In this document: one piece after another, positions 7,495-55,613 of the stretch | Position numbering within the stretch: position 1 is the first letter of the stretch | Layout of the letters: the number at the start of each line of letters is the position of its first letter | Virus record (IMG/VR): IMGVR_UViG_3300047160_018755 | Coordinates: 64,001 to 128,000 of that record | Strand: one strand, 5' to 3' | DNA from: a virus | Length of the DNA stretch: 64,000 nt | Notes under the pieces: generated by a model | The model's database searches: none | Seen by the model: the letters and a program-made list of their open reading frames with translations, nothing else | What the model was told of the DNA's origin: nothing | Position numbers and translations under genes: made by a program

Positions 7495-9434
7495 ACCCTC
7501 TCTTCGAGAAGGGCGCCACCATGGTGCTCAAGGACAAGAAGGAGCCCAAGCGCAAGCTGCGCTATGCGTTGGGCATCGACGCCAACGGCGTCCCCCTCAA
7601 GAAGGGCGACCGCGTGAAGTGGACCGAGGCGTACACGCGCCGGCTCTACTTGCGCTCGCGCCAGCACCGTGCCGAGTTCATGGGCCAGGTGGGCGTGGTC
7701 GAGGATCTGTGCAAGTGGGGCGAGGAGCGCGGCCCCGAGGTCAACGTCCGCTACTTCCACAGCAACTTCTTCGGCAAGTCCAAGAACGGCCTGCGCTACT
7801 CGGCGCACCCGAGCGACCTGGTCAAGGTGACCCCATGACGGGGATCTCATGTGAGAGGGCTCGATTTTTCCTTGACACGGATCCCCGATTGTGAGATAAC
7901 AAAACCATGCCAACACAAAAGTTCCTTCGTGAATCCCAAGAGCGGACCTACCAGGCGATCGAGACCCTCGGCGAGGTCTCGGCCTACGACGTCATGGACG
8001 TGGTTGCAGCCGGCCTGGAGGGAAACAGGGCCTTCGCGATGCGCCAGCGGGTGAGCGGCGCGTGCTCCGAGCTTCACGCCGAAGGCCGGATCGTCAAGGT
8101 CGGACGCAAGGTCAACCCTTCGTCCGGGGAAACTGTCAACGTCTACCGCGCCAACCCCGAAGGCACGTCGTGCAGCTGCGGCAACTGCCCCGGCGACGGC
8201 GCCGATGGCGAAGGGGCCGGCTACAAGAGCAAGTACGAGGCGCTCTTGGAGAAGTATCAAGCTCTTCTGGCCGAGCGCGTACCGCTCTGCCGTGACTGCT
8301 GCACAATCCTGTGCCGCAGCTGCACGACGAACCGCAACCGAGCCACTTTGGTTGCGGTTGCCTGACCAAGACCAGTTCTTCGCCTAAATCTCTGGTACGG
8401 AGCGCGGCATGCTGCGCAGGGAGAGCCTGCGAGGGGTGTCTCGGGAGTGTCCTACCTGTTGAAACACCGGCTCCGTACCCTCTTTTCCACCACATGAAAG
8501 GATCCACATGACGACCAGCGAGATGTCCACCGACCTCGTCAAAGAGGTGACCGCCAAGCTTCACGAGCAGATCGACGCCGCCATCGAGGCGCGCAACTCC
8601 GCCTTCCAGGCCATGACGCCGGCCGAGAAGCGCAAGACCGTCGCCTACGACGTCCTGGAGCAGCTGTACCAGAAGCGCTTCGTGGCCCATTGCGGTCAGT
8701 GGCTCTCGTCCAACGACGTGACGGGCCTGCGCAACATCGACCGCTACGAGATCATCCCCAAGGAGGCGCTGGACGCCGATGCGCAGACCGCCATCGCCGG
8801 CAAGACCTGCGACGTGTGTGCTCTGGGCGCGCTCTTCGCCTGCACCATCGAGCGCCAGAACAGCATCGACATCGCGGGCGTGCGGCGGGCCGACTTCCGC
8901 GGCATCAGCGCCTACCTGACGGGCATCTTCGATCGCCGCACCCTCAACCTCATCGAAGCGTGCTTCGAGCGCCGCCGCGACTCCTGCGACTTCATGGACT
9001 ACGACAGCACGACGCGCCAGGAGGACGAGGTCCGCGTCAACACGTGGCTCAAGTACCACGGCAGCGAAAGCTCCTCCGAGCGCATGGTCTCGATCATGCG
9101 CAACATCGTCCGCCACGAGGGCGAGTTCGCGGTCTAGATGACGTGGGCTGAGCTACGAGATGCACTCCAGTGCCGGCACCTGAGCGGGCGACACTGGAGC
9201 AACGGCGAGTGGCCGCACATCTACGAGTTCGCCTGCAACGACTGCGCCTTCTGGTGGACCAACACGGTGGTGACGACGCGCCCGCCACAGTGGGACTGGG
9301 CGGACTGGCTCATCGATCACTGGCTCGATCCGTACCACGCCTTCGCCGACTGCATCAAGCGGGAGGACGACCTGCCCTGCAAGGAGTGTCGCGAGTACGC
9401 GATGGATGCCGTGGGTGCGCCACGCAGGAGTTGA
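7491..9434 (+). other. Hypothetical genes 7491-7838, 7907-8365 (possible winged-helix), 8508-9137, 9138-9434
   Basis: RBSs; TTGACA at 7872 before 7907; coding-like composition. Confidence 0.6.
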
Positions 9435-9488
9435 ACCTGCAACCTTTCCCTTAGGAGGGGACTGCTCGTCCAATCGAGCTAGAGGCGC
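9416..9488 (-). tRNA. tRNA-Arg(CCT)
   Basis: Cloverleaf, anticodon loop CTCCTAA, T-loop TTCAACT. Confidence 0.85.
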
Positions 9489-9494
9489 GTGGGT

Positions 9495-9567
9495 GCTCTT
9501 CGTAGGGATCGAACCTACATCCACAGGGCTTAGAAGGCCCGGGTCTTTCCAGTTGATGTAGAAGAGC
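9495..9567 (-). tRNA. tRNA-Arg(TCT)
   Basis: GCTCTTC/GAAGAGC acceptor, loop CTTCTAA; overlapped by the 3' end of the HNH gene. Confidence 0.8.
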
Positions 9568-9952
9568 GCTGATAGGTCCGCTCGCGGTGGCAATTGGCGC
9601 ACACGAGATCACATTTGGCAATTTCTGCTAGAATCTTGGACCGAGAGCCGTACTCACTCAACATGGCGACGCCGGCTACCTTCTTCTCTCCCGGACGATG
9701 ATCCCAGTCCATCACGTACGGAGGGTAGGCGACTCCACAGTCGGAGCACGGCTTCCCAGCTTTCAGGGACCGAGCGAAAGCAACGATCTCTTTTCTGTGA
9801 ACCTTCGCCTTCTGTAGGTATTTCCTCTTGTTCTTGCGGTAGTGCTCGTCCTTGTACGCCTTCTGGCACGATCTACAGAACGGCTGGAGCCCGTTCCTCT
9901 TCTTAGAAAACTCAGAATCTGGCTTCGGACCACACTTGGAGCAAATTGCCAT
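9530..9952 (-). CDS. HNH homing-type endonuclease
   Basis: CSKC..CRSC N-terminal Zn finger; CSDC...DWDH...CDLVCANCHRERT; lower GC; AATCTT 6 nt before ATG. Confidence 0.85.
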   Translation of the reverse strand: MAICSKCGPKPDSEFSKKRNGLQPFCRSCQKAYKDEHYRKNKRKYLQKAKVHRKEIVAFARSLKAGKPCSDCGVAYPPYVMDWDHRPGEKKVAGVAMLSEYGSRSKILAEIAKCDLVCANCHRERTYQRSSTSTGKTRAF

Positions 9953-9979
9953 GTTTTCAAGATTGTGATCCGATGAAAG

Positions 9980-10051
9980 TAGCCTGTGAGGGTGCCGCCC
10001 CCTCTTTGCCGCCTTGAAAGGGCGGAAGCCTAGCTGTTGACCGAACAGGCC
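9980..10051 (-). tRNA. tRNA-Glu(TTC), atypical T-loop
   Basis: CCGCC-CTTTCAA-GGCGG anticodon arm; T-loop GGCGGCA. Confidence 0.7.
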
Positions 10052-10115
10052 GTGAATCCTCACTAAACTGCCATATCTCACCGCAAAGTGAGGATTGATA
10101 ATTTAGTGAGGTATG

Positions 10116-10186
10116 TAGCCCTATGGGGACTCGAACCCCATCCATCTGGCTGAGAACCAGAGATCCTACCCATAAACGATAGGGCC
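10116..10186 (-). tRNA. tRNA-Glu(CTC)
   Basis: TCTGG-TTCTCAG-CCAGA; GGTTCGAGTCC. Confidence 0.85.
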
Positions 10187-10191
10187 ATGAG

Positions 10192-10264
10192 CATGTCGTC
10201 AAGGAATCGAACCTTGCTTTTCCGTTTTGGAGACGGAACCGTTCCCAGGACCGGTCAACGACAT
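10192..10264 (-). tRNA. tRNA-Trp(CCA)
   Basis: TCCGT-CTCCAAA-ACGGA; GGTTCGATTCC. Confidence 0.85.
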
Positions 10265-10280
10265 ATAGAATTCTGCACGG

Positions 10281-10354
10281 TAGGCTCGGTCGGGTACGAT
10301 CCGACAGCCGTTCGCTTAAAAGGCGACTGCTCTGTCCGTTTGAGCTACGGGCCT
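10281..10354 (-). tRNA. tRNA-Lys(TTT)
   Basis: Loop CTTTTAA; T-loop ATCGTAC. Confidence 0.8.
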
Positions 10355-10410
10355 GTGTGTCGGCTGTTTATGAGCCCACCGATCCGCCGACCGATCGATG
10401 AGAATCCCTG

Positions 10411-10482
10411 AGCGCGCTGCGAGGATCGAACTCGCTCCGTCTGGGTGGAAGCCAGGTATGCCGCCAAGTACACCTAGCGCGC
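10411..10482 (-). tRNA. tRNA-Gly(TCC)
   Basis: GCGCGCT/AGCGCGC acceptor, U73, loop CTTCCAC. Confidence 0.85.
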
Positions 10483-10499
10483 AGAAAGGAAATAAAGGA

Positions 10500-10657
10500 G
10501 CCGGTGTGCTACCGTTACACTAAGTCCGACAGAGGCAGCGTTTCACTCTAGACGTTTTGGCGACTTGATCAGGGCCGCTACTGGCTGTCCTAGCTGCATG
10601 TCCCTCCCACCGTATCAGGGCAAGAGGTTTGGTGTGGAGTCGAACCACTCCACCGGC
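10500..10657 (-). ncRNA. Permuted tRNA-like RNA A (T-arm first, D-arm last, about 100 nt structured insert)
   Basis: GCCGGTG..CACCGGC closing stem; GTGG-TTCGACT-CCAC at 5'; TA-GTGT-AACGGTA-GCAC at 3'. Confidence 0.6.
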
Positions 10658-10660
10658 TTT

Positions 10661-10734
10661 TGGAGCACCTACCGCGAGTCGGACGCGGGCTTCCTCGTTG
10701 GCAACGAGGTTTGCTACCGTAACAACTTAGGTGC
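10661..10734 (-). tRNA. tRNA-Gly(GCC)
   Basis: GCACCTA/TAGGTGC, loop TTGCCAA, encoded CCA. Confidence 0.85.
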
Positions 10735-10757
10735 GTATTTCGTAGTCTTTGGCAAAC

Positions 10758-10880
10758 TTACATTCGTAGATCCGCCCTGTGTCCGTCACTAAAGGGAAGC
10801 AGGACCTTCTTCCCGGCGCGCACCAGGGCTGCCAAGATCATCGCCTTGGATAAATCACCAACTCCTGTTGTATCGCGCAT
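10758..10880 (-). pseudogene. Truncated PD-(D/E)XK homing endonuclease relic
   Basis: MRDTTGVGDLSKAMILAALVRAGKKVLLPFSDGHRADL then stop; resembles the N-terminus of PDDEXK_5-type endonucleases. Confidence 0.6.
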
Positions 10881-10882
10881 TG

Positions 10883-10955
10883 TTGCGGAGGTCGGATTCG
10901 AACCGACGTATGGCTGGGTATGGGCCAGCTGAATGGGCCACTTTTCTACTCCGCA
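10883..10955 (-). tRNA. tRNA-Met(CAT)
   Basis: GCTGG-CCCATAC-CCAGC; GGTTCGAATCC; initiator/elongator/Ile2 identity not resolved. Confidence 0.8.
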
Positions 10956-10975
10956 GTGTATTTCTATCGAATCTG

Positions 10976-11050
10976 TAGGTCCGGTGGGGGATGATCCCAC
11001 AACCTTTCGCTTAAGAGGCGATTGCTCTGAACCAGTTGAGCTACGAACCT
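10976..11050 (-). tRNA. tRNA-Lys(CTT)
   Basis: Loop CTCTTAA; T-loop ATCATCC. Confidence 0.8.
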
Positions 11051-11107
11051 GTGGGGGTCTCTCCCTCAGTCAAGCCTGGATTTCGCGGCGGCTTTCCCTA
11101 CTTTGGC

Positions 11108-11184
11108 GCTGGCGACTTAAACCACTCGTCCACAGGCCCGATCTTTCGAACGAGCCCGGCGGGATTCGAACCCGCGTCTCCAGC
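11108..11184 (-). ncRNA. Permuted tRNA-like RNA B (YrlA-like)
   Basis: GCTGG-AGAC-GCGGG TTCGAAT CCCGC-CGGGCTC-GTTC GAAA GATC-GGGCCTG-TG-GAC GAGTGGTTTAA GTC-G-CCAGC. Confidence 0.8.
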
Positions 11185-11191
11185 AATTCCG

Positions 11192-11458
11192 TTACCTGCG
11201 CTTCTTGCTGTCGAGCTTGGTCGCGAACGACCTCTCGGCAGAGCGCTGAAGATCGAGAGCCTTGCTGTCCATCGTCGAGCCACGCTCGGTCACGACCCAG
11301 CCCCTGCTCCACTTGCCCTCGTCGTCCTCGGCACTGTCGATCAAGATCTCGACGTGCTTGCCGACCTTGGCGAAGCTTGTTGGAATGAAGGCGGTGTGAA
11401 TCTGCTTGCCGCCACCTTCGCACGGCCTTTCCATCCTGCATTGCGTGTACGATGCCAT
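11192..11458 (-). CDS. Hypothetical protein inside the tRNA cluster
   Basis: AAGGA RBS; 88 aa. Confidence 0.6.
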   Translation of the reverse strand: MASYTQCRMERPCEGGGKQIHTAFIPTSFAKVGKHVEILIDSAEDDEGKWSRGWVVTERGSTMDSKALDLQRSAERSFATKLDSKKRR

Positions 11459-11481
11459 CTGACTTCTCTCTTCCTTGTTTG

Positions 11482-11553
11482 TGGACCAGCAGGGAATCGA
11501 ACCCTGATCTCCGCAGTGCGAAAGCGGCGTCTTCCCATTGATACGACCAGCCC
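11482..11553 (-). tRNA. tRNA-Ala(CGC)
   Basis: G3:U70 pair, loop TTCGCAC. Confidence 0.85.
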
Positions 11554-11617
11554 AAAGTAATGGGTCGGTTACGACCGACTGGCACCTCGTGGATGCCATG
11601 TAGCCGACTGACCCTCG

Positions 11618-11689
11618 TGCGCCTCGCTGGGATCGAACCAACGGCCTCTCCCGTGTCATGGGATTGCTCTTCCGCTGAGCTAGAGGCGC
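11618..11689 (-). tRNA. tRNA-Val(GAC)
   Basis: Cloverleaf, loop ATGACAC. Confidence 0.85.
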
Positions 11690-11692
11690 AGG

Positions 11693-11766
11693 CTCCAGTG
11701 TGCTACCTTTACACTACCGCGCCCATAGTGGTGGGCTTGGGCGGACTTGAACCGCTACTCCTGGAG
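11693..11766 (-). ncRNA. Permuted tRNA-like RNA C
   Basis: CTCCAG-GAGTA-GCGG TTCAAGT CCGC-CCAAGCCC-ACCACTAT-GGGCGCGG-TA-GTGT AAAGGTA GCAC-A-CTGGAG. Confidence 0.75.
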
Positions 11767-11771
11767 TTTCG

Positions 11772-11843
11772 TGCGTCTTGATGGGATCGAACCACCGGCC
11801 TTTCCCGTGTGAAGGGACTGCTCTACCGCTGAGCTAAAGGCGC
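11772..11843 (-). tRNA. tRNA-Val(CAC)
   Basis: Cloverleaf, loop TTCACAC. Confidence 0.9.
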
Positions 11844-11910
11844 ATGTTTGGGAGTCTTCTTCACTCCCCACGTCTTGGACTATTTAATTTTCAGAGATCC
11901 GAACCCACTC

Positions 11911-11987
11911 TGGCTCCGGAGGACCGACTCGAACGGTCATCTACATCTGGTTAACAGCCAGGCGCTCTGCCATTGAGCTACCCCGGA
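11911..11987 (-). tRNA. tRNA-Asn(GTT)
   Basis: TCCGGGG/CTCCGGA, loop CTGTTAA, CCA. Confidence 0.9.
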
Positions 11988-12013
11988 AAACGCCTGGCCT
12001 GATCGGCTCAGGG

Positions 12014-12133
12014 TTACTTCAGGGTGGCTTCTACTTTGGCGCCGCCAGCCCACCCCATGCCGGCAGCGCACACGTTCGCCTCGGCCTTATTGGCCTCCGC
12101 GATCATGACGTTGACGTTGGTGTTGGTGAGCAT
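12014..12133 (-). CDS. Putative leader peptide of tRNA operon 1 (39 aa)
   Basis: MLTNTNVNVMIAEANKAEANVCAAGMGWAGGAKVEATLK; TAATCT motif and GAGG upstream; 26 nt before tRNA-Asn. Confidence 0.65.
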   Translation of the reverse strand: MLTNTNVNVMIAEANKAEANVCAAGMGWAGGAKVEATLK

Positions 12134-12265
12134 GACTGGAACCCTCAGTAGATTAGGACTCGAAAACCGATCCACTACACTTCTATCGAATCTCGACGGA
12201 GAAAGCAAGCGAATACGTACATCCCCGCATTGCTTTTTCTGGCGTAACCTGTAGGGTGACGCGCC

Positions 12266-13057
12266 ATGGGAACAGAGGGTAGCAAGCGCAGGGCGGATGT
12301 GGTAGTATCGTCGAATGAGCACGGGGTTTGCATCTTCCACCCCACGAACCTGAGAGCACAGACGTGGCTGGCACAGAACGTGTCGGCCGAGTTCCACGAC
12401 AACGGCCACGTACGCTGTGGCCCGTTCAAGGCGGCGCAGCTGGTCTACTGGCTCGCCCTGGAAGGATTCGAGGTCAAATGACGAGCCGCATCAGACGCAA
12501 GACGCCGGTCAAGAAGCTCTACCCGTCCCAGGTCAAGGCCGAGTGGAAGAGCCTGGGACGTCGCGCCATACGCTTGTGGAAGCTGTCGGCGGGGCTCGAC
12601 CCCGAAATCGACAAGCTCTTCAAGCGCATGGACGCGTGTGATCGTGCGATGGCTAGGGAAGCTCGACGTCAGAGGCGCGAAGCTTCCGTACGATAGCGTC
12701 CGCCTCGTCCGGAGGCACGCCGTGCTGCTGGAGCAGTCCAGAGAGGCGCTCGAACACGTGGTTGACGCCGAACGTGAAGCTGTCGCTGTTGCGCGACACC
12801 ACCGCACCAGGTGGGCGCCAGCACACGATGCAGCGCTCCGCGGTGACATCCTCGTCCGTGGGGAGGGATTCCTGTGGCGCGGCGCCGCCCGGCACGGTCA
12901 CGTCTTCCTCTGCGTCTACAACAGATACGCTCATTTCGCACTCCTGGGGTTGACCGATCATGTTCGCCGGTATATCACACTGCATCCTGTCAGGGAAGCC
13001 CTTATCGCACAAAAGCGCCACGATCGTGACACCTACAATGGATCTCACAATACGTAG
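12266..13057 (+). other. Hypothetical genes 12266-12481, 12478-12696, about 12638-13057
   Basis: Overlapping ORFs, no family recognised. Confidence 0.45.
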
Positions 13058-17477: not shown

Positions 17478-18212
17478 ATGACCGCCACCGTTCGCAGCCT
17501 TCCCCGTCCGGCCACCCGCCCCGACCTCGACACCAGCCAGTACCCGCTGCGCTACGTCGAGTTCTGGCAGATGCGCGGGCAGAAGTACAACCCGCAGAAG
17601 CGCGTCGATCGCGGTCGCAAGCAGCTCAAGGAGCTGAAGGAGAGCGTCGCCCAGTACGGCATCGTCGACGCCCCGGTGCTCACCTCCGACCTGGAGATCG
17701 TGGACGGCCACCGTCGTCGCGCGGTCGGCACGGACCTGGCCCTCGGCGGCTGCATGTGCCGCATCGCCCCCTTCGACTCGAAGGACCCGCGCGCCGATCT
17801 CCTCTACCAGGTGCTCAACACCGCGGAGGTCATGCCCGGCCGCCAGAAGCTGGAGGTGGTCGCCAAGGGCGGCCCCGGCTCGAAGGAGATCGTGGCCACG
17901 TGGGCCCAGATCAAGAAGTCCCTCGGCGACGAGGGGCCCTACATCGAGATGTTCGCCGAGCACGGCTACGTCGGGCAGTTGTGGAAGAACTGCACCCGCG
18001 TCGCGGACCTGCTGTTCAACAACGGCATCCTCAAGGACCGCCCTGCGCGCGAGTCCTTCGTCCACCGCGCCGTCATGAAGTGGCAGTGCACGGGCGAGCA
18101 CCGCCAGGAGGCGTGCAAGATCTACTGCACCAAGATCGGCAAGGGCATCCCGGGCTACAAGGTCCAGTCGCTCTGGAAGGCGATCGAGACCGGCGCCAAC
18201 GTCGAGGTCTGA
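17478..18212 (+). CDS. ParB/Srx N-terminal domain protein
   Basis: YNPQKR...LKESVAQYGIVDAPVL...IVDGHRRRA. Confidence 0.75.
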   Translation: MTATVRSLPRPATRPDLDTSQYPLRYVEFWQMRGQKYNPQKRVDRGRKQLKELKESVAQYGIVDAPVLTSDLEIVDGHRRRAVGTDLALGGCMCRIAPFDSKDPRADLLYQVLNTAEVMPGRQKLEVVAKGGPGSKEIVATWAQIKKSLGDEGPYIEMFAEHGYVGQLWKNCTRVADLLFNNGILKDRPARESFVHRAVMKWQCTGEHRQEACKIYCTKIGKGIPGYKVQSLWKAIETGANVEV

Positions 18213-18213
18213 C

Positions 18214-18555
18214 GTGAAGGTCAGGACCCCAGCCGAGCTTCTCACCGAAGCTCGGGCCCTCATCGCGAAGGGCTGGTGCCAGGGTGCGTCCGCTCGGGAC
18301 GTGCACGGGATCCCGGCCGACTTCTGGGGGCAGAAGGCGGTGACGTTCTGCATGTCCGGGGCTCTGTGCCGGATGGAGAACTTCATCTTCGACGCCCACC
18401 GGACCAGCCGCAACATCCTCTACAGCGTGATCGAGGTCAACAACCTCGCCACGTGGAACGACCGCGAGGGCCGCACCCAGGAAGAGGTGCTCGCCGCCTT
18501 CGACAAGGCCATCGCGATCGCGAAGGACCTTGACATCTCCGAACGGATCCGCTAA
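18214..18555 (+). CDS. DUF6197-like phage protein
   Basis: GWCQG...FCMSGAL...WNDREGRTQEEVLAAFDKA. Confidence 0.6.
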   Translation: MKVRTPAELLTEARALIAKGWCQGASARDVHGIPADFWGQKAVTFCMSGALCRMENFIFDAHRTSRNILYSVIEVNNLATWNDREGRTQEEVLAAFDKAIAIAKDLDISERIR

Positions 18556-18558
18556 GGT
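18530..18558 (+). promoter_or_regulatory. sigma70-type promoter
   Basis: TTGACA-17nt-TAAGGT. Confidence 0.75.
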
Positions 18559-18891
18559 ACACACCATGAACAAGTTCTCGAACGTCAAACGGAAGATCCT
18601 GGGGCTCGTCGAGCGCAGCGTCCAGGAAGGGTTCTACCTCGCCAAGGGCTGCCAGATGCAGTTCGGGTCCGACAACGGGGATGAGACCGGCTTCTGCCTG
18701 GTCGGCCTGATCGCCCACAAGGCGAACAAGACCGGCAAGCCGACCTACTACCTCACCGCGGGTGCCGAGTTCCTCGACATCAGCGTTGGCCAGGCCTGTC
18801 AGCTGGAGGCGGGGTTCGAGGGGTGGACCCACTACAACACCGAGGACGAGTTCTACAAGCTCGGCAACCACATCAGGGAGACGTACGCGTC

Positions 18892-19413
18892 ATGAAGCTT
18901 CGCGAGTTCAAGAAGATCATCGCCGGCATGCACCCGGCGGCGTTCGCGCCCGCCTTCGAGCGCTGCCACAACGTCTCCGAGGTCCAGGTGGCCATCGAGG
19001 CCTTCGGCCTGGCCCGCGCCGAGCTGAGCAACATCGAGAAGCGCTACCGCGAGCGCGACCTGGAGCAGATGCAGGCCGTCGCCGTCCTGGAGGCTCGGAT
19101 CGACCTGCTCGACCAACAGATCGCTTCCCGGCAGATGGTCCAGGTCCGCGAGGCCGAGGAACCCCGCGAGGAGGTGATCCTGACCAAGGTCCAGCCCCAG
19201 GTGGGCCGCACCTTCGTCGATCGCATCGAGGTCATCAAGGCGGTCCGCGAGGTCAGCGGTATGGGTCTCAAGGACGCCAAGGACCTGGTCGACGAGGTCG
19301 CCGACAAGGGCTTCGAGCGCAAGCTCTTCACGGGCGTGACGTCCAAGGCAGCCGTGGCGGCCCGGGTGCTCGAAGCGGCCGGCGGCGTCGTCGTGCGCAA
19401 GGAGGCGTTCTGA
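18892..19413 (+). CDS. Coiled-coil protein fused to a ribosomal bL12 (L7/L12) C-terminal domain
   Basis: RIEVIKAVREVSGMGLKDAKDLVD...KAAVAARVLEAAGGVV matches the bL12 CTD. Confidence 0.8.
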   Translation: MKLREFKKIIAGMHPAAFAPAFERCHNVSEVQVAIEAFGLARAELSNIEKRYRERDLEQMQAVAVLEARIDLLDQQIASRQMVQVREAEEPREEVILTKVQPQVGRTFVDRIEVIKAVREVSGMGLKDAKDLVDEVADKGFERKLFTGVTSKAAVAARVLEAAGGVVVRKEAF

Positions 19414-19795
19414 TGCTCACGAAGCTCCTGAACCCCATGGGGATCAGGCTCACGAACGCGAGCGCCGCCTGGATCGTCCTCGGCACCCTTCTTTCACTCG
19501 GTCTGCACGTGGCGTTCTACGGGACGCTGCTCCACTTCGTCATCAAGTTCTGGTAGGAGGCACATGTCGTTCGTTCCGAAGATCAAGAAAGCGAAGCGCA
19601 AGGCCATCGCCCGTCGTTCGGGCAAGACGATCGCGTCGGCCATCGACCGTCTCAACGCGAAGCTCACCAAGCCCCACCAGTTCCCGGTCCACGAGAACAA
19701 CCAGCTCCACAAGACCTCAGCGGCGATCGCCGAGGACGCCCGCCGTCAGGAGCGCCTGATGGACCGCAAGCGCTGGAGCCACGCGGGCTGATCGG

Positions 19796-21178
19796 TTAGT
19801 TCGAGATGACGCCGCACATGCTCGTCGTGATCGTCGAGTTGAGCGGCAACGAAGCCGTGGCGATGGCCGTGGCTGCGGCCTGGATGGGCGAGCCGTCACT
19901 CGTCGAGCCGTCCACAGTCACGGGCACCGACGCCGAGTTGTAGAGGAACGTCGTACCCGGGTTGACCTTGATCAGCTTGGCACTGTTGCCGCTACCCGCG
20001 ATGTTGTTCATGAGCATGAACGACCCTTGAGTGGAAAGGGTGAGGCAGTTGCCCGTGTTGTCGTAGAAGCACATCCTGGGTCCGTTCGCGTTCGAACCGC
20101 CGGAACCCATGGTGAAACCAACGGCGCCCTGGAAGAAGAGATTTCCAGACCACGAGAAGGTCATGCCGTTGCCGGTGAGGACGGCTGCGCCGACGAACGC
20201 AGCGGTGCGCATGTCGATGGAGCCGTGGCCGAGGAACTGCACGGAAGCCCAGAACGAGCAGTTCGAGAAGCGCCCGTTGGTGAAGTTCCTGGTCGTCGAG
20301 ATCGAGCAGCGGTCGTAGTTGATGTAGGAGAGCGTGTCGTTCGACACAGTCGAGCCGCCGTTAGCTGAGCGGTCATCGCAGAACAAGATCTGGAATCGCC
20401 CCTGGACGCTTCGCTGCATCTCTCGGGGGGCAGGGAAGCTCTGGGTGTAGATCTTGGGAAGCGACGAGATCGTGTAGGTGTCGCTCGCGGAGAGCGCACT
20501 GATTGCCGGCGTCGTCGCGTTGGTCACAGGATCGCTCATGCGAAGCGTGTTCGATCCGGAGTCCTTCATCGGGTGCCACCACACCTTCGTGCCGTTGGTG
20601 CGCTGGAAGATCACGCCGGCACGGATGAATCCAGACGCCGTCCACGAGCCGCCCGTGATGGAGTTGTCCACCATGTGGTTGTCTCCGGTGTTGGCGTTGC
20701 TCTGAACCTGCCCTGAGTACGAGGCCACGGTGCCAGTGTAGAGCACCGTGGGGGTGCCGATGAGGGAGATGCCGTCCGCGTTTGACGCAGCACCGGGCTG
20801 GAACTGGTACGTCCACACGGGAGAGTCCGTGCTCACGCAGTCCGACAGGAGGTTGATGGTGATCGACGTGCCCGACGGGATCGTCACCCACGCGAGGCGG
20901 TTGGCAATCTCCGTGAGGCTCTTGAGCGGCGCCGAGGCAGTGAGACCGGAGTTGCTGTCGCTTGCGATAGCGTTCTGCGGATCAACGTACCAGGTGGTTT
21001 GGATTCCCGGAGCCGTACCTTCACCGAAGGCAGCCCACCCCGTTGCCTTGTCTGCGATCTTGATGTAGAGCTTCCCCGTCAGAAACGAGTAGCCCATCTG
21101 ACCGATCGGAGCTTGCCAACCAGTGACGGTGGGATCCCCCTGAAGGAGGTATGCGACTGCGGTGTTGTTGTCAGCCAT
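19796..21178 (-). CDS. Tail fibre / receptor-binding protein, copy 1
   Basis: WYVDPQNAIASDSNSG...PLKS motif, S/T/G/N-rich beta-solenoid-like body; late motif upstream. Confidence 0.6.
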   Translation of the reverse strand: MADNNTAVAYLLQGDPTVTGWQAPIGQMGYSFLTGKLYIKIADKATGWAAFGEGTAPGIQTTWYVDPQNAIASDSNSGLTASAPLKSLTEIANRLAWVTIPSGTSITINLLSDCVSTDSPVWTYQFQPGAASNADGISLIGTPTVLYTGTVASYSGQVQSNANTGDNHMVDNSITGGSWTASGFIRAGVIFQRTNGTKVWWHPMKDSGSNTLRMSDPVTNATTPAISALSASDTYTISSLPKIYTQSFPAPREMQRSVQGRFQILFCDDRSANGGSTVSNDTLSYINYDRCSISTTRNFTNGRFSNCSFWASVQFLGHGSIDMRTAAFVGAAVLTGNGMTFSWSGNLFFQGAVGFTMGSGGSNANGPRMCFYDNTGNCLTLSTQGSFMLMNNIAGSGNSAKLIKVNPGTTFLYNSASVPVTVDGSTSDGSPIQAAATAIATASLPLNSTITTSMCGVISN

Positions 21179-32876: not shown

Positions 32877-33012
32877 CAGGTATCCCTCCTGACAACCAAG
32901 ATTAAGAGCGGAACAAAAAAGAAGGAAGGGTCAGGTCCCGCACCCTCTCCGTTTTCTGCGTTACCGGAGACTCCCGTGCAGTAAGGGATTGTGAGGTGAA
33001 GGACCTGATTTG

Positions 33013-33394
33013 TGGACCCGCGGGGAGTCGAACCCCGATGTCGGAAACTTTGCGATCGAGCTTGTACGTGCGTTTCCTCGTTTTCGGGGGCTAGGGATCG
33101 AGGTGTCCCGGACTACGGCGCCCTCCACCACCTGGTTTTGCTGACCAGGAACAGTTGGTTTCCCTCTGTAGTTGTTTCTCAGGCGGCTACTAAGGGGCCT
33201 CACCGTCTGAGATTCGATTAAGCCGCGAGCGCGCGAGCGCCGTAGCCACCGAAACCGTTCGCCTCGATCAGATCGAAGGGAACGTCGAACTCATCGTTCG
33301 CTTTTCTTTTTTGGTCTTCTTTTTACGAGGCCTGATGACCAACCTCGGCACGCGTCTCAGTCCCTCTGTTCCCGGTCGATGCCGGTTCGGGCCC
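33013..33394 (-). ncRNA. ssrA: tmRNA
   Basis: 5' GGGCCCG-AACCGGCATCGAC; 3' GGGGTTCGACTCCCC-GCGGGTCCA with G3:U70; tag ORF 33301-33218 ANDEFDVPFDLIEANGFGGYGARALAA*. Confidence 0.92.
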
Positions 33395-34105: not shown

Positions 34106-34220
34106 CAGACCGCTCGCTTCATCTCTTTCAACCTCTGCGCCGTGCGCAGGTCGAACTGATGCCCACGGAGCCCTCGCCGTCGAAGAAACCGGCTACGTAG
34201 CGAGGATCAACCCTTGACAC
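34105..34220 (-). pseudogene. Internally deleted LAGLIDADG endonuclease relic
   Basis: VSRVDPRYVAGFFDGEGSVGI starts at the rtcB stop; out-of-frame tail AQRLKEMKRAV* ends in a TGATG overlap with the next gene. Confidence 0.65.
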
Positions 34221-35463
34221 AGAGGACTTGCCTCAGCGTGTGGACGATCTCGACCAGGTCTTTCTGGTTCTCCATGACTTGGTCAATGTTCTTGTAGGCC
34301 GAGGGGATCTCGTCCAGGACTCCGGAGTCCTTACGGCAGCAGACACCCTTCGTCTGCTCGGCGAGATCCTCGACCGTGAAGGTCCTCTTTGCCTGCCCGC
34401 GAGACATCTTGCGCCCGGCCCCATGGGAAGCCGAGTTGAAGGAGTCGGGGTTCCCGAGCCCGCGGACGATGAACGACTTCGCTCCCATGCTGCCCGGGAT
34501 GATCCCCAGGCGGCCAGCCTCAGCGTTGATGGCCCCCTTGCGGGTGACCAGGACGTTCTCGCCGAAGTGAGTCTCCTCGGCGACGTAGTTGTGATGCGCA
34601 AGGATCGGCTTCTCGAACGTCACCTCCAGCGAGCCGCCCCAGAAGTCCGCGAACGTCCGCTTCAGGATGTCGAACATGACCATGCGGTTCAGCATGGCGT
34701 ACTCCTGCGCCCAGAACAGGTCGTGTCGATACGCCGTCATCTCCTTCGTTCCGGAGAGGAAGACCGCCATGTCCGGATCCGGGATGCGCTCGTTGTGGAT
34801 CAGGCCACGCGCGATGTCGATGTGGATCTCGGCCAGCTCCTTGCCGATGTTGCGCGAGCCCGAGTGCAGCATGAGCCACACGCGCGGCTCGTGCTTGTAC
34901 TGGTGCCACTCGCCGCAGTTGTCCTGACCGCAGTCGTAGATGCCGTTGTCCAGGCACACCTCGATGAAGTGGTTGCCGCCACCGAGCGTACCCATCTGCT
35001 TCTTCGCCTTCGCGAAGTCCACGCGCTCGCCCTGGTGCAGGTCCTTGAAGCGATCGAAGAGCTTCATGTGCTCGACGGCAGTCGCGTGGTCCGAGAAGTG
35101 GAAGACCGCCCGATCGTGGGCGTTGAAGCCCACCGGGATCGCAGCCTCGATGGCCGCACGCATCGGCTCCAGGTTGTCCGGGAGGTCCGAGGCGACGAGA
35201 TTCGTACGGATCGCGCCCATGCCACAACCGATGTCGACGCCCACCGCGGCCGGCGCGACTGCATTCTTCATGGCGATGACCGAGCCGACCGTACAACCTT
35301 TCCCAGCGTGGACGTCCGGCATGACGGCCACGTGGTGGTAGACCCACGGGAGCTTCGCGACGTTCGACAACTGGTCGAGCGCCATCGAGTCCACTTCGTG
35401 GATCGGTGCCCAAAGCTTGACCGGGACGAGCTGCCCGGCTTTGTTCATTTCCGAAAGAGACAT
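34207..35463 (-). CDS. rtcB: RtcB RNA ligase
   Basis: MPDVHAGKG, VDIGCGM, GTLGGGNHFIE, HSGSR, HHNY, SHGAGR. Confidence 0.95.
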   Translation of the reverse strand: MSLSEMNKAGQLVPVKLWAPIHEVDSMALDQLSNVAKLPWVYHHVAVMPDVHAGKGCTVGSVIAMKNAVAPAAVGVDIGCGMGAIRTNLVASDLPDNLEPMRAAIEAAIPVGFNAHDRAVFHFSDHATAVEHMKLFDRFKDLHQGERVDFAKAKKQMGTLGGGNHFIEVCLDNGIYDCGQDNCGEWHQYKHEPRVWLMLHSGSRNIGKELAEIHIDIARGLIHNERIPDPDMAVFLSGTKEMTAYRHDLFWAQEYAMLNRMVMFDILKRTFADFWGGSLEVTFEKPILAHHNYVAEETHFGENVLVTRKGAINAEAGRLGIIPGSMGAKSFIVRGLGNPDSFNSASHGAGRKMSRGQAKRTFTVEDLAEQTKGVCCRKDSGVLDEIPSAYKNIDQVMENQKDLVEIVHTLRQVLCVKG

Positions 35464-37189
35464 GATACTCCGAGACGGATGAAGTGGAACAGAAGGATCA
35501 CCGGCATCGCCGGCAGGAGACAGGTCTCCAGATGCGCGTCGAAGAACCACGCACCGATGTAGAGCCACGCGATGCAGAACACCACGTAGGCGAGGATGAT
35601 CAGAACCGCGAGCATCACGGCTCCTCGGGGAGCCACGTCACGCGGTACGTGGAGTTGAGCGTGTCGAACTCGAAGCCGTCGACGGTCTTGACGACCTCCT
35701 TAATGACGCTCGTGCGGGCGAGGTTGCCGTTGTCCTTGTACAGGCAGAAGCACCCCTCGACCCGAGGGTCGTAGTAGGTGTGCCCGAGCATGGACTTGTG
35801 ACGCTCCTCGACCGGGTGATTCGACTCGACGAGATCGAGCCGGCACCGCCGCCATTCACACTTGAGCTTCTCCATGAACGTACCTTACCTCACTTCCCGT
35901 CGATCGTCCAGGACTTTCGTTCGGCCCCCTTCTCGCCGTACTCCTCGGACTCGATCCAGACGTCCTTGGTGTGGTCGCCGTTCGGGTCCATCTTCCAGAA
36001 GCCCCACTTCTTGCCCCGATTCCAGCCCACGACCCAGGACAGCGTCGGGCCAATGAGCTTGACGATGTGGACGTGACCCTCCGGGTTGTGCAAGGTTGTG
36101 CCGACGCGCGCCACGTTGACACGGGGGTTGCCTGGCCTGCCGTAGCCGCCCTCGCGGGCGGGCACGCGCGGGTAGTAGACCTCCTCATCATAGCCGTTCA
36201 TGAGGATCGTGGTCGTGAAGGGCCCGGGGTGGTCATGCGGGTCGCGCCCCTCGTCGGGGAGCAGGATCAGGTGGAGGAACCGCGGCCGGTACCACTTCTG
36301 CTTCGGGGTCATAAACCAGCGCCGCAGGTAGAGCTTCCCCTCAGGCGTGAAGATGTCGAGGTGAGGCCAGAGCGCCGACATGAGGTGGACGAAGGTGGCC
36401 TTGTCGAAGAAGAACGCCACCAAGATGATCGGCGAGATGGCGACCGCGAAAAGCGCCTTGAACACCGACCAGATCGTGAACAAGTACTCCCAGCTGTAGA
36501 GCAGCGCGAGAACGACCAGGCCGCTGAACATCGCGAAGGACATTAGCTGATCAGCTCGTCCTTCGTCTTCCCAGACGACGGGGTGGTGGGAGCAGACGGC
36601 GCCGGGATGTCACCGCGACCCACCAGCGTCTGGTAGGCCGGCCCGATGTAGTTCTGGTAGACGCTGTTGATGGCGAGGACATCTTCGATCGTCGGCGACT
36701 GCTCGGCGCCACTGTTGTTGACGACCTCCTCCGCCATGTCGCAGGCGAACATCAGGTCCTCGAACAGCATCAGTCGGGCTTGCGTCTCGATGAGAGGGCC
36801 GTGCTTCCCGGGCTGGCCCTTGAGGTCGTTCAGGCGTTGCGTGAGCTGATCTTTCAGACTGCTCATAGTTTCCACTCTTTCGGCTTGTGTCCTGGGATCT
36901 TGAATTGCCAATGGTGAATCTTACACTGTTCCCCCGGCGGGATGCCAGGAAAAACGTACTCGCTCGTTCGGTGTCCGCGGATCCCGACCGCCTTCGAGGT
37001 CAGCTTGGACTCGCATTCGATCCAGAACCAAATCGACCTCCGGAACGGGTTGTGGACGGTGATGTGGCGCTCCCACTCGGGAGACGCATGTTGGGGTACG
37101 ACCAAGATCGAGATCTGGTCGGTGATGGCCGGCTGCGGGTGCTTCGCTGGGGCGAAGGCCAGCAACGTGGCAATCAGAAAGGACTTCAC
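35460..37189 (-). other. Hypothetical genes, including a TM plus cupin-like protein (35890-36543) and an exported protein (36863-37189)
   Basis: YLRRW...HDHP...HIV cupin-like His motifs; signal peptide MKSFLIATLLAFAPA. Confidence 0.55.
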
Positions 37190-38671: not shown

Positions 38672-38828
38672 GCGCAAAACCTCCAACTCTATTTCTATCG
38701 AATCTTTCGAAGAAACGCAAGTAGGATCCGTAAGCTACGAAACGGGCGGCGCCCGGGTCGATGTTCGGGAGAGGGAACCATCCAGACCGCGGGCGCCGCC
38801 ACCTTGGTGAGACTCCAAGAAGATTCGG

Positions 38829-38899
38829 TTCCCTCGCACCGATTCGAACGATGATCTGACGGGTCAAGGCCGTCGGTCCTGCCGTTAGACGACAAGGGA
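38829..38899 (-). tRNA. tRNA-Gln(TTG)
   Basis: GACGG-CCTTGAC-CCGTC. Confidence 0.85.
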
Positions 38900-38912
38900 G
38901 TATCGGACAATG

Positions 38913-38985
38913 TGCCGCCGGAGGGACTCGAACCCCCGCCCTTCCCGTTCGAAGCGGGTCGCTCGTCCAGTCGAGCTACAGCGGC
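38913..38985 (-). tRNA. tRNA-Arg(TCG)
   Basis: Loop CTTCGAA. Confidence 0.85.
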
Positions 38986-38986
38986 A

Positions 38987-39058
38987 TGGCCTCTCTGTCA
39001 AGAGTCGAACTTGAATTCCGGCCTTCGCAGGGCTAGATGGGATCCACTCCCCAAAGAG
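38987..39058 (-). tRNA. tRNA-Arg(GCG), atypical D-arm junction
   Basis: CTCTTTG/CAGAGAG, loop CTGCGAA, CCA; lacks U8. Confidence 0.6.
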
Positions 39059-39059
39059 A

Positions 39060-39133
39060 TGGTACGAGATGCTGGAATCGAACCAACGTCAGCCGCTAAT
39101 CGGGCAGCCGCACTACCATTGTGCTAATCTCGC
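39060..39133 (-). tRNA. tRNA-Ile(GAT)
   Basis: Loop CCGATTA, CCA. Confidence 0.85.
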
Positions 39134-39134
39134 A

Positions 39135-39208
39135 TGGTTGCCTCGGATCGATTCGAACGATCGTCGCCGGTTTCAGAGACCGGAGTCCTGCCGCTAGACG
39201 ACAAGGCA
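39135..39208 (-). tRNA. tRNA-Gln(CTG)
   Basis: CCGGT-CTCTGAA-ACCGG, CCA. Confidence 0.9.
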
Positions 39209-39217
39209 ATGTATTTG

Positions 39218-39288
39218 AGCTACTGGAAGGAATTGAACCCTCATTTCTGCCGTACGAAGGGAGTGTCCTGCCGTTGAACGACAGTAGC
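39218..39288 (-). tRNA. tRNA-Thr(CGT)
   Basis: Loop TTCGTAC; one mismatch in the anticodon stem. Confidence 0.75.
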
Positions 39289-39293
39289 ATCTG

Positions 39294-39364
39294 AGCCGAT
39301 CGAAGGAATTGAACCCTCGTGAACTGCTTACTGGGCAGTCGTCCTACCGTTGAACGAGATCGGC
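39294..39364 (-). tRNA. tRNA-Thr(AGT)
   Basis: ACTGC-CCAGTAA-GCAGT. Confidence 0.75.
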
Positions 39365-39366
39365 AT

Positions 39367-39455
39367 TGGTGGGCTACCCAGGAATCGAACCTAGCTGGAA
39401 CGTAAAGGACGCCTGTGTTACAGACAGGCCCGCCTCCATAGCGGTCTAGTAACCC
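39367..39455 (-). tRNA. tRNA-Tyr(GTA)
   Basis: Loop CTGTAAC, long variable arm, CCA. Confidence 0.85.
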
Positions 39456-39501
39456 AAACCAGTGACATGAGCGACTATTCAATTTTCAGAGAATCTTTCG
39501 G

Positions 39502-39576
39502 GGTGACCGGTGGGACTCGAACCCACAATTTGACTGATTCACAGTCAGCCGTGTCTACCAATTTCACCACGGCCAC
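39502..39576 (-). tRNA. tRNA-His(GTG)
   Basis: Loop CTGTGAA, C73. Confidence 0.85.
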
Positions 39577-39578
39577 AG

Positions 39579-39649
39579 TCTGGGTGACAGGAATCGAACC
39601 TGCATAACCTGGTTCCGGGCCAGGGAGCTAACCAATAGCCTACACCCAG
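39579..39649 (-). tRNA. tRNA-Pro(CGG)
   Basis: CCTGG-CCCGGAA-CCAGG. Confidence 0.8.
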
Positions 39650-39682
39650 AGATCGGGGCGCACGGCGAGGTTGCGTGTCTTG

Positions 39683-39755
39683 CGCTGCTGGCGGGATTCG
39701 AACCCGACCTCACGCGATAGACAGTCGCGCAGCCTCACCAGATGCTTACAGCAGC
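39683..39755 (-). tRNA. tRNA-Asp(GTC)
   Basis: Loop CTGTCTA, G73. Confidence 0.85.
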
Positions 39756-39763
39756 AGAGCTTG

Positions 39764-39835
39764 TCGCACCCGCAGGAATTGAACCTGCGCGCCCGGGATT
39801 TCAATCCGGTGCTCTACCAACTGAGCTAGGGTGCG
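39764..39835 (-). tRNA. tRNA-Phe(GAA)
   Basis: Loop TTGAAAT. Confidence 0.85.
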
Positions 39836-39873
39836 TTCTCGATCGTTTGTGCCGGGCTTCCCGGCTTGTCGCT

Positions 39874-40014
39874 TTACTTGATCCCGGAGGGATCGAAGCG
39901 ATCGAGCGCACCCTGTGCTGGGCGCTGGTGTTGCTGATGGCGCGGATAACGCACGATCCGGCCACCGGTCGTAATGCCGGTTCGAATCGTGGTGTATGTG
40001 GTCGCGGTCAGCAT
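39874..40014 (-). CDS. Putative leader peptide of tRNA operon 2 (46 aa)
   Basis: MLTATTYTTIRTGITTGGRIVRYPRHQQHQRPAQGALDRFDPSGIK; shares TAATCTACTGAGNGTTCCA with the operon-1 leader. Confidence 0.65.
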   Translation of the reverse strand: MLTATTYTTIRTGITTGGRIVRYPRHQQHQRPAQGALDRFDPSGIK

Positions 40015-40147
40015 TGGAACACTCAGTAGATTAAGTCTGCCTCAGACGATCGTTGGAGTCAAGAAAAAAGAGGAGCCCGATCCTGTGGGCCCAGATTGTA
40101 CTTCTCTTCCCGTAGCCGTACGGGCTCCTCGTGTACCTTCTATCGAA

Positions 40148-40570
40148 TCACTCGCGCTTCGAGGGCGGAGATCCCGCGCACTCCAGGACCGCCCAGCACT
40201 CGTTCAGGAACGTCTGGACGTGATAGAAGCTCCAGTCGCCGGCCCAGTCGTGCTCCTCGAAGAACGTGCGCGCCGCGGCCTTGTTGTCGAACCACCGCAC
40301 GCCGCTCTCGATGCTGCCGGCCAGCTCCATCACCTCTTCCTTGGAGTCGCAGGCTTCCATCGCGTCGCAGCCGCTGCACGAGCCGTAGCCGATCGAGACG
40401 AAGCCGTAGCGGTCGCCGTCCTGGATGAGGTAGAAGAGGTCGCCCTGGTAGTCGCCCGCGCGTTCGTAGACGACGGTCTTACCGAGCGCGTCCACGATCT
40501 GCTCGTAGCTCGGGTAGGCCTTGCCGTAGTCCGTGTCGGGTCCAAACAGCTCTTCGTAGGTCTTGTTCAT
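40148..40570 (-). CDS. Conserved phage hypothetical protein
   Basis: GDYQG...GYGSCSGCD motif; GAGGA RBS. Confidence 0.7.
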   Translation of the reverse strand: MNKTYEELFGPDTDYGKAYPSYEQIVDALGKTVVYERAGDYQGDLFYLIQDGDRYGFVSIGYGSCSGCDAMEACDSKEEVMELAGSIESGVRWFDNKAAARTFFEEHDWAGDWSFYHVQTFLNECWAVLECAGSPPSKRE

Positions 40571-40629
40571 GGCGATCCTCGTTTTCTTTCTATCGAATCT
40601 AGGAACCGAAAGCAAGAACTATCGAATCG

Positions 40630-40701
40630 TGCCCCCGCCGGGATTCGAACCCGGAGCTTCCTGGTTTGAGCAGGCTGTCTGTGCCGTTGAACTACGAGGG
40701 C
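40630..40701 (-). tRNA. tRNA-Leu(CAA), short variable loop
   Basis: Loop CTCAAAC, A73, 4-nt variable region. Confidence 0.75.
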
Positions 40702-40702
40702 T

Positions 40703-40779
40703 TGGTACCCGGAGCGGGATTCGAACCCGCAACCTCCGCGTTCTGAGCGCGTTGCCTCTGCCGATTGAGCTACCCGGGC
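40703..40779 (-). tRNA. tRNA-Leu(CAG), short variable loop
   Basis: Loop CTCAGAA, A73, CCA, 5-nt variable region. Confidence 0.8.
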
Positions 40780-40784
40780 GTGAG

Positions 40785-40869
40785 TGCGATCGACAGGACT
40801 CGAACCTGCACGCCCGTTACGGGCACCGGACTCTCAATCCGGCGGGTCTACCAATTCCCCCACGATCGC
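40785..40869 (-). tRNA. tRNA-Leu(GAG)
   Basis: CCGGA-TTGAGAG-TCCGG, long variable arm. Confidence 0.9.
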
Positions 40870-55264: not shown

Positions 55265-55274
55265 GTCCCTAAGA

Positions 55275-55613
55275 TTACGCCCGGTAGTGCTTGCAGGCCG
55301 TATTGCTGCACTCGATGGTTCGGAAGAGAATGAAGGCGTTTCCCCCACAAACGAGGCACGTGTGCGGGTACCTGGACGACTTCTGCTTCTGCTCTTCGTC
55401 CACCAAGATCGCAGCCACGCAGGTGTAGTGCCACGTCCCTTGACGGAAGCCCGCGGTCATGGTAAGGTGATGGGCTTGAGGATCGACAGTGTAGGTCGGC
55501 TTCCAGGCGCACTCGATGACGATCTGGGCCATGTCGTAGTAGTAGCCGACCACCCGTCCAAGCTTCTTCTCCCCGCCAGGCTCCTCCCGGAACCACACGA
55601 CGTACCCCGCCAT
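55275..55613 (-). CDS. Hypothetical protein with C-terminal Zn ribbon
   Basis: CLVC...CSNTAC. Confidence 0.6.
   Translation of the reverse strand: MAGYVVWFREEPGGEKKLGRVVGYYYDMAQIVIECAWKPTYTVDPQAHHLTMTAGFRQGTWHYTCVAAILVDEEQKQKSSRYPHTCLVCGGNAFILFRTIECSNTACKHYRA

Follow-up and report, generated by a model that had tools for sequence, protein, structure and literature searches.

A tRNA-like element between two valine tRNA genes

The phage examined here is an uncultured virus represented by a 182,279-bp IMG/VR record with direct terminal repeats (CheckV completeness 100%; GC content 63%). Our analysis centred on bases 64001-128000 of this record, a stretch of 64,000 nucleotides that we refer to as the window and whose numbering is used throughout for this phage. 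A blastn search of INPHARED returned generic tRNA matches only, with no close relative among deposited phages, and the majority of the large phage proteins have no Pfam or PHROG family match. The phage encodes about 30 tRNAs, and the following features of the window, including two tRNA arrays, form the setting of the analysis.

9414-11987, minus strand: tRNA array 1
11771-11843, minus strand: tRNA-Val(CAC), the upstream neighbour of the element under study (discriminator at 11772; CCA not encoded)
11693-11766, minus strand: the element itself, a 74-nt permuted tRNA-like sequence whose minimum free energy (MFE) structure is a cloverleaf
11761-11766, minus strand: closing stem, 5' strand CUCCAG, replacing the 3' strand of an anticodon stem
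11741-11755, minus strand: T-arm GCGG-UUCAAGU-CCGC, with G53, U54, U55, C56, A58 and C61 present
11717-11740, minus strand: acceptor-like hairpin CC-AA-GCCC / GGGC-GC-GG, with the loop A-CCA-CUAU
11729-11732, minus strand: ACCA encoded in the DNA, comprising the discriminator A and CCA; the 4-nt linker CUAU (11725-11728) comes next
11700-11714, minus strand: D-arm GUGU-AAAGGUA-GCAC, with A14, A15, G18, G19 and A21; U8 and A9 precede it
11693-11698, minus strand: closing stem, 3' strand CUGGAG, pairing with 11761-11766
11617-11689, minus strand: tRNA-Val(GAC), the downstream neighbour, beginning at 11689
33012-33394: one-piece standard tmRNA gene, adjoining the RtcB gene
34207-35568, minus strand: RtcB RNA ligase gene (PF01139, E = 2.8e-125)
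38827-40869, minus strand: tRNA array 2

Read on the minus strand from 11766 to 11693, the element consists of an entire tRNA body in swapped order from which the anticodon loop is absent. It runs CUCCAG, GAGUA, GCGG-UUCAAGU-CCGC, CC-AA-GCCC, A-CCA, CUAU, GGGC-GC-GG, UA, GUGU-AAAGGUA-GCAC, A and CUGGAG. The original prediction had described a 74-nt element closed by a perfect 6-bp stem, CTCCAG/CTGGAG, and all six pairs (6/6) are indeed Watson-Crick. The T-arm (TTCAAGT), the acceptor-like stem bearing ACCA, the 4-nt linker and the D-arm that it listed can all be read on the minus strand and agree with the RNAfold MFE structure. Its placement of the element between two Val tRNAs with spacers of 3-5 nt is likewise correct, the spacers being 5 nt (CGAAA) on the tRNA-Val(CAC) side and 3 nt (CCU) on the tRNA-Val(GAC) side. 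Spacers of this size resemble those that separate genuine tRNAs in the same array.

In RNAfold the four-way junction is both the MFE and the centroid structure (-26.9 kcal/mol, 37% of the ensemble), with a folding z-score of -2.56 and 2 of 200 shuffled sequences folding equally well; the same method returns a cloverleaf for only about half of the phage's own tRNAs. The element is predicted to fold as an L-shaped tRNA core made up of elbow, acceptor/T stack and D-arm, with no anticodon loop. This core is irregular in places. Only 4 pairs form in the T stem, where position 49/65 is an A.C mismatch; the acceptor-like helix contains two adjacent mismatches, G.A and C.A, and so forms 5 of 7 pairs; and the 7/8 junction holds one extra nucleotide. 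Neither ARAGORN nor Rfam makes a call on either strand of this region, and with its altered order and missing anticodon loop the element was rejected as a canonical tRNA (RF00005).

Elsewhere in array 1, the motif GATCNNTGAMAAYTWAATAG (11880-11899, minus strand) separates tRNA-Asn from the first tRNA-Val. Every related array has it at this place, pointing to a conserved promoter inside the array or a signal for processing. Another repeated motif, GAAAGCC..GGCTTGAC..GGAGAGAC, occurs 5' of other tRNAs. The tRNA-Trp(CCA) gene (10191-10264, minus strand) is aberrant in its D region and scores under the Rfam threshold for tRNAs. This oddity is conserved, the same region reading CCUCUGGGAGGGG in two relatives (L039, approximately 2092-2165; L041, approximately 395-465). 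Outside the array, a 90-nt ARAGORN 'tRNA-Thr(GGT)' (19612-19701, minus strand) with a poor T-loop and no Rfam support is probably a false call, and a 452-aa protein (53990-55348, minus strand) contains a minimal CRISPR polymerase (mCpol) domain (E = 1.2e-12), suggesting a phage-borne signalling or counter-defence enzyme.

Derivation of the element from a tRNA

The element is clearly derived from a tRNA. The window contains 25 matches to the T-loop consensus GGTTCRANYCC, with 0.77 expected, and three of these matches lie in array 1 outside called tRNAs; the match in the element is at 11743-11753. All applicable universal tRNA nucleotides are retained (U8, A14, G18, G19, A21, G53, U54, U55, C56, A58 and C61), and A15/U48 and A26/G44, as read from the sequence, fit tRNA tertiary pairs. 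The T-loop enrichment, together with the complementarity of two stems, rules out a chance origin.

If its parts are put back into normal order around a 5-nt filler loop, the element is called as a tRNA by ARAGORN, a result that carries little weight because the program also accepts 26 of 195 chimeras of different neighbouring tRNAs. As a control for the fit of the two halves, the upstream 3' half was paired with the downstream 5' half at 195 distinct tandem-tRNA junctions in phage loci. A full anticodon stem (5/5 pairs) together with at least 5 of 7 acceptor pairs was found at just one of the 195, a Lys(UUU)/Lys(UUU) tandem. Since only this single junction fits as well, we conclude that the two halves of the element stem from one tRNA species. 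Of 195 real phage tRNAs, at least 191 form 6 or more of the 7 acceptor pairs; the acceptor of the element, with its mismatches, may thus be in decay and may make a poor substrate for RNase P.

The normal tRNAs nearest to the element are of the Trp/His/Gln type and come from unrelated phages, none of them from this one. A search of IMG/VR with the pattern T-loop...CCACCA...TAGTGTAANGGTAGC returned 27 loci, all ordinary tandem tRNAs; a D-arm of this type is therefore generic for phage Trp, Gln and His tRNAs and does not serve as a family marker.

Related arrays and sibling modules

About 10 related arrays were found by means of two conserved proteins (one of 293 aa, array-adjacent; one of 88 aa, array-internal) and a scan for a promoter-like motif. 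Anchored on the tRNA-Asn end, this motif gave 6 further related arrays in a metagenome scan, and in IMG/VR its matches were largely unrelated and low in GC. Single and profile searches of IMG/VR with the flanking proteins yielded nothing, or only a 45-kb fragment lacking array 1. Gene order in the related arrays is Asn-Val-Val-Ala/Lys-Met-Gly-Gly and so on. The 88-aa protein (ORF88; 11192-11458, minus strand) has no family match and an AlphaFold model of too low confidence for interpretation (pLDDT 52), and it is array-internal in all relatives at varying positions.

An orthologue of the element is missing from all of these approximately 10 arrays, all from relatives more distant than the two closest by ORF88 protein (82% and 65% identity), so that conservation and covariation lend the element no support. 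An exact 25-mer of the element has 0 matches in IMG/VR. A single-sequence model built from it (R1) scored 109.9 bits against itself and otherwise gave only weak matches, to tandem-tRNA junctions or to the D-arm of a sibling module described below, and a loose structural scanner applied to 951 kb returned chiefly tandem junctions with chance 5-bp clamps. Degradation as spacer and lack of conservation in related phages had been named at the outset as observations that would speak against a permuted tRNA mimic, and the second of these is what we see across the related arrays. What stands of that reading is the anatomy, a permuted order with an internal ACCA, no Ro-binding stem and a tight fit between tRNAs; release through tRNA processing and RNase P cleavage in the ACCA-CUAU loop are plausible by analogy.

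The region occupied by the element differs greatly among relatives. Their spacers between the two Val genes measure 60, 62, 100, 112, 167, 298-299 or 482 nt, with unrelated contents that fold strongly in every case (-21 to -141 kcal/mol), and the order of the two Val genes is swapped in some. A small conserved hairpin with the loop GCAKAAU and a covarying stem, followed by CCYUG, occurs in the inter-Val spacers of L006, L066, L071 and L039; its counterpart in this phage (11563-11580, minus strand) has the loop CGUAA, lies in the Val(GAC)-Ala spacer and was flagged as terminator-like by a terminator scan.

Such strongly folding, sequence-unrelated spacers in every relative, and the recurrence of the covarying hairpin in several relatives and in the next spacer of this phage, would suit a structural spacer, in which any stable fold stops the near-identical Val tRNA halves from mispairing and presents clean sites for RNases P and Z, the fold here being one derived from a tRNA. 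We consider this explanation of the element improbable, as it leaves the retained tRNA tertiary nucleotides, the ACCA and the T-loop unexplained, and a plain hairpin is enough in relatives.

Besides the 74-nt element, array 1 contains two modules in which the T-arm comes first and the D-arm last, here called elements 1 and 3.

10500-10657, minus strand: element 1, a sibling module; T-arm ahead of D-arm, the acceptor being replaced by a conserved core of about 100 nt
11108-11184, minus strand: element 3, a permuted module; T-arm, 8-bp closed acceptor without CCA, D-arm and closing stem

Element 1 belongs to a family of units of about 160 nt built from closing stem, T-arm, core, D-arm and closing stem again, the core being marked by the motifs CAUGC(A/G)NCUA and GAGAGUGAGA..GCUGYCUCUG. 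Orthologues or paralogues occur at L039:1612-1775, L071:1452-1623 and 1979-2140, L006:7296-7455 and L041:1-54. The closing stems of the family covary (GCCGGUG/CACCGGC, GGGGG/CCCCC, GGCGGUG/CACCGCC and GCCCG/CGGGC), compensatory changes affect 22 of the 37 consensus pairs across relatives, and the family has no match in Rfam. A permuted module different from the 74-nt element, followed by a second hairpin domain, lies in the inter-Val spacer of L039 (458-559). Its closing stem is GCGGC/GCCGC and its T-arm reads GACGG-UUCGAGC-CCGUC; the acceptor-type arm, long and closed, is accompanied by a D-arm. Element 3 begins 7 nt past the stop codon of ORF88, its acceptor is closed by UUCGAAAGAU, and its T-arm is identical over 19 nt to the tRNA-Glu(UUC) T-arm of L006 and L007.

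A further relative, L007, encodes a Ro60 protein (TROVE plus vWA; locus 17700-19839). Upstream of the Ro60 gene lie two tRNA-shaped RNAs (17831-17958 and 18050-18196) whose ends are normal and in which a long insert stands where the anticodon arm would be. Two repeats of a GAUCGGACCGA..AUUGGGUUA stem-loop are also located upstream of this gene, and Rfam recognises neither the RNAs nor the repeats. Because L007 combines Ro60 with tRNA-shaped RNAs, and because the array contains siblings of which the element 1 family covaries, we conclude that this phage group uses tRNA mimics. The present phage has no Ro60/Rsr (TROVE) gene: PF05731 has no match across the complete 182-kb genome, and the L007 Ro60 protein as query has none at E <= 10. 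In L008 (7305-7412), another tRNA-shaped RNA is situated upstream of tRNA-Asn; it ends in ACCA, its anticodon arm is extended, and it is not called by ARAGORN.

The element may instead be a young, functionless by-product of array rearrangement that is transcribed and then degraded as spacer. It could be the inner junction left when a gene for a Trp/His/Gln-type tRNA or a tRNA-shaped RNA was duplicated in tandem and the outer halves were then replaced, or a Y-RNA-type module that was left without its handle after the lineage lost Ro60. We judge this rather unlikely in itself and nearly as likely as the reading that we favour below. It is consistent with the absence of the element from all related arrays examined, with its position in a turnover hot spot (spacers of 60-482 nt, unrelated contents, swapped Val order), with the acceptor and T-stem mismatches and the extra nucleotide at the 7/8 junction, and with the HNH endonuclease genes present in these arrays. 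Ro60 is found in the relative L007 and not in this phage, and the only control junction with matching halves, a same-isoacceptor tandem, shows a possible route of origin. On the other side, the anticodon-type stem has its base precisely at the two boundaries of the element, with normal spacers, which would be rare from random deletions; all tertiary nucleotides and three stems are intact; and the topology occurs three times in the array and once more in L039.

Proposed release and role, and comparison with known systems

The CGAAA that precedes the element is found after tRNA-Val in element-free relatives as well, and it therefore belongs to the Val gene. This bears on another possibility, namely that the element is a true permuted tRNA gene whose processed ends are joined into an anticodon loop and whose acceptor loop is opened to give a decoding tRNA. 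Permuted tRNA genes are known in red algae, which provides a precedent, and CCU joined to CGAAA gives CCUCGAAA, which contains CU-CGA-AA and follows the loop pattern Y-U-NNN-R-N. We find this scarcely credible. The joined ends would form an 8-nt loop on a 6-bp stem, the encoded ends stop at the stem, the CGAAA trailer is a property of tRNA-Val, and a loop of this pattern would be expected by chance in about 1 of 8 cases. A Ser anticodon would moreover require a long variable arm, the acceptor is mismatched, and a search for an Rnl2-type RNA ligase found none. RtcB joins 3'-phosphate or 2',3'-cyclic phosphate ends to 5'-OH ends, and RNases P, Z and E leave a 5'-phosphate and a 3'-OH (PMC7824862). 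RtcB would thus be unable to join these ends, and for the same reason the RtcB assay suggested in the original prediction is poorly suited to the element.

The reading that we favour, and hold tentatively, is that the element is a handle-less tRNA mimic freed by tRNA processing, possibly opened by RNase P, and a non-cleavable competitor for host tRNA-binding proteins. We infer that it is co-transcribed with the tRNA operon and would be released by the RNase P cut at the 5' end of tRNA-Val(GAC) and the 3' processing of tRNA-Val(CAC). RNase P may also open its loop between CUAU and the following G, because a 12-layer acceptor/T stack precedes the A-CCA and the 4-nt 'leader'; trimming could then yield a two-piece RNA with a CCA end, a step proposed solely by analogy to M. 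smegmatis YrlA. The most likely role, although speculative, would be tRNA mimicry without decoding and without a cleavable anticodon loop. One may further speculate that, beside the phage tRNAs, tmRNA and RtcB, the element acts as a competitor or decoy towards host proteins, anticodon nucleases for example, that recognise the body of a tRNA.

Several lines of evidence argue for a handle-less mimic: the exact anatomy, the MFE cloverleaf, the universal nucleotides, the matching halves and the tRNA-like spacers within the locus, and beyond it the sibling modules, the covarying element 1 family, the L039 module and the Ro60 gene of L007 with its tRNA-shaped RNAs. Against it stand the missing orthologue, the acceptor and T-stem mismatches, and the lack of Ro60 or a Ro-binding motif. 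In a bolder form, which we regard as decidedly improbable, the element would be a Ro60-independent, anticodon-less two-piece tRNA mimic with a genuine CCA end, one of three permuted 'tRNA clamps' in one operon. It would shield the translation of the phage by engaging host defence enzymes that target tRNAs (anticodon nucleases, CCA-end modifiers), or would itself be aminoacylated by a synthetase indifferent to the anticodon. As a single lineage-specific copy the element is a lead and not a result, and the conserved sibling family represented at 10500-10657 offers a better entry point.

Permuted arrangements of tRNA-like sequences occur in several known systems. In Cyanidioschyzon merolae, circularly permuted tRNA genes carry the 3' half ahead of the 5' half, with a short linker after the CCA; these genes keep the anticodon loop, and they mature via a circular intermediate and the eukaryotic/archaeal splicing machinery. 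The element resembles them in placing the 3' half first and linking the acceptor ends after the CCA, and differs in that no anticodon is encoded. Two-piece (permuted) tmRNA shares with it a permuted gene order and an internal CCA end exposed by processing. The mRNA-like part is absent from the element, however, whose 74 nt hold no ORF, and the permuted tmRNA model RF04321 does not match there.

Within the same phage group, the tRNA-shaped RNAs of L007 offer another comparison. The first of them resembles the element in its near-identical D-arm, in a T stem of 4 bp with an A mismatch and in ending 3' in GCCCACCA, yet the L007 RNAs are not permuted: their ends are those of a normal tRNA, and a long insert takes over the site of the anticodon arm. 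Because the D-arm is generic for phage Trp, Gln and His tRNAs, it does not establish common descent.

YrlA (RF02553; Chen et al. 2014, PMC4201824) resembles the element in ending at the anticodon-stem position and in consisting of a T-arm, a closed acceptor and a D-arm, so that the permuted-order tRNA-like domain of YrlA is present here; both are also found in phages. The YrlA of M. smegmatis undergoes RNase P cleavage and acquires CCA in vivo (PMC4201824). An acceptor loop cut by RNase P, with a 5' piece ending in CCA, is a feature that the element may share: its ACCA-CUAU-GGGC segment is at the right place for an M. smegmatis-type cut (between CUAU and GGGC), on an acceptor with 2 mismatches. 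Unlike YrlA, the element has its CCA encoded and not added (a phage CCA-adding enzyme was searched for and not found), and it is a single unit in a tRNA operon, clamped by only 6 bp. The Ro60-binding helix with its GNCGAAN0-1G motif is absent, the 6-bp stem CUCCAG/CUGGAG being all there is, which bears out the early claim that the element has no long Ro-binding stem; the 5' spacer does contain CGAAA, without the motif's G two bases before it. RF02553 has no match at E <= 10 in 9300-12300 and none at gathering score in the window. Given no Rfam match, no Ro60 gene and no Ro-binding helix or motif, membership of the element in YrlA is rejected. YrlA itself has been proposed to act as a competitive inhibitor of anticodon nucleases (Hughes et al., PMC7790460). 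If our favoured reading is true, the element would represent a natural Y RNA tRNA-like domain stripped of its Ro60 handle, and would isolate that domain's own action.
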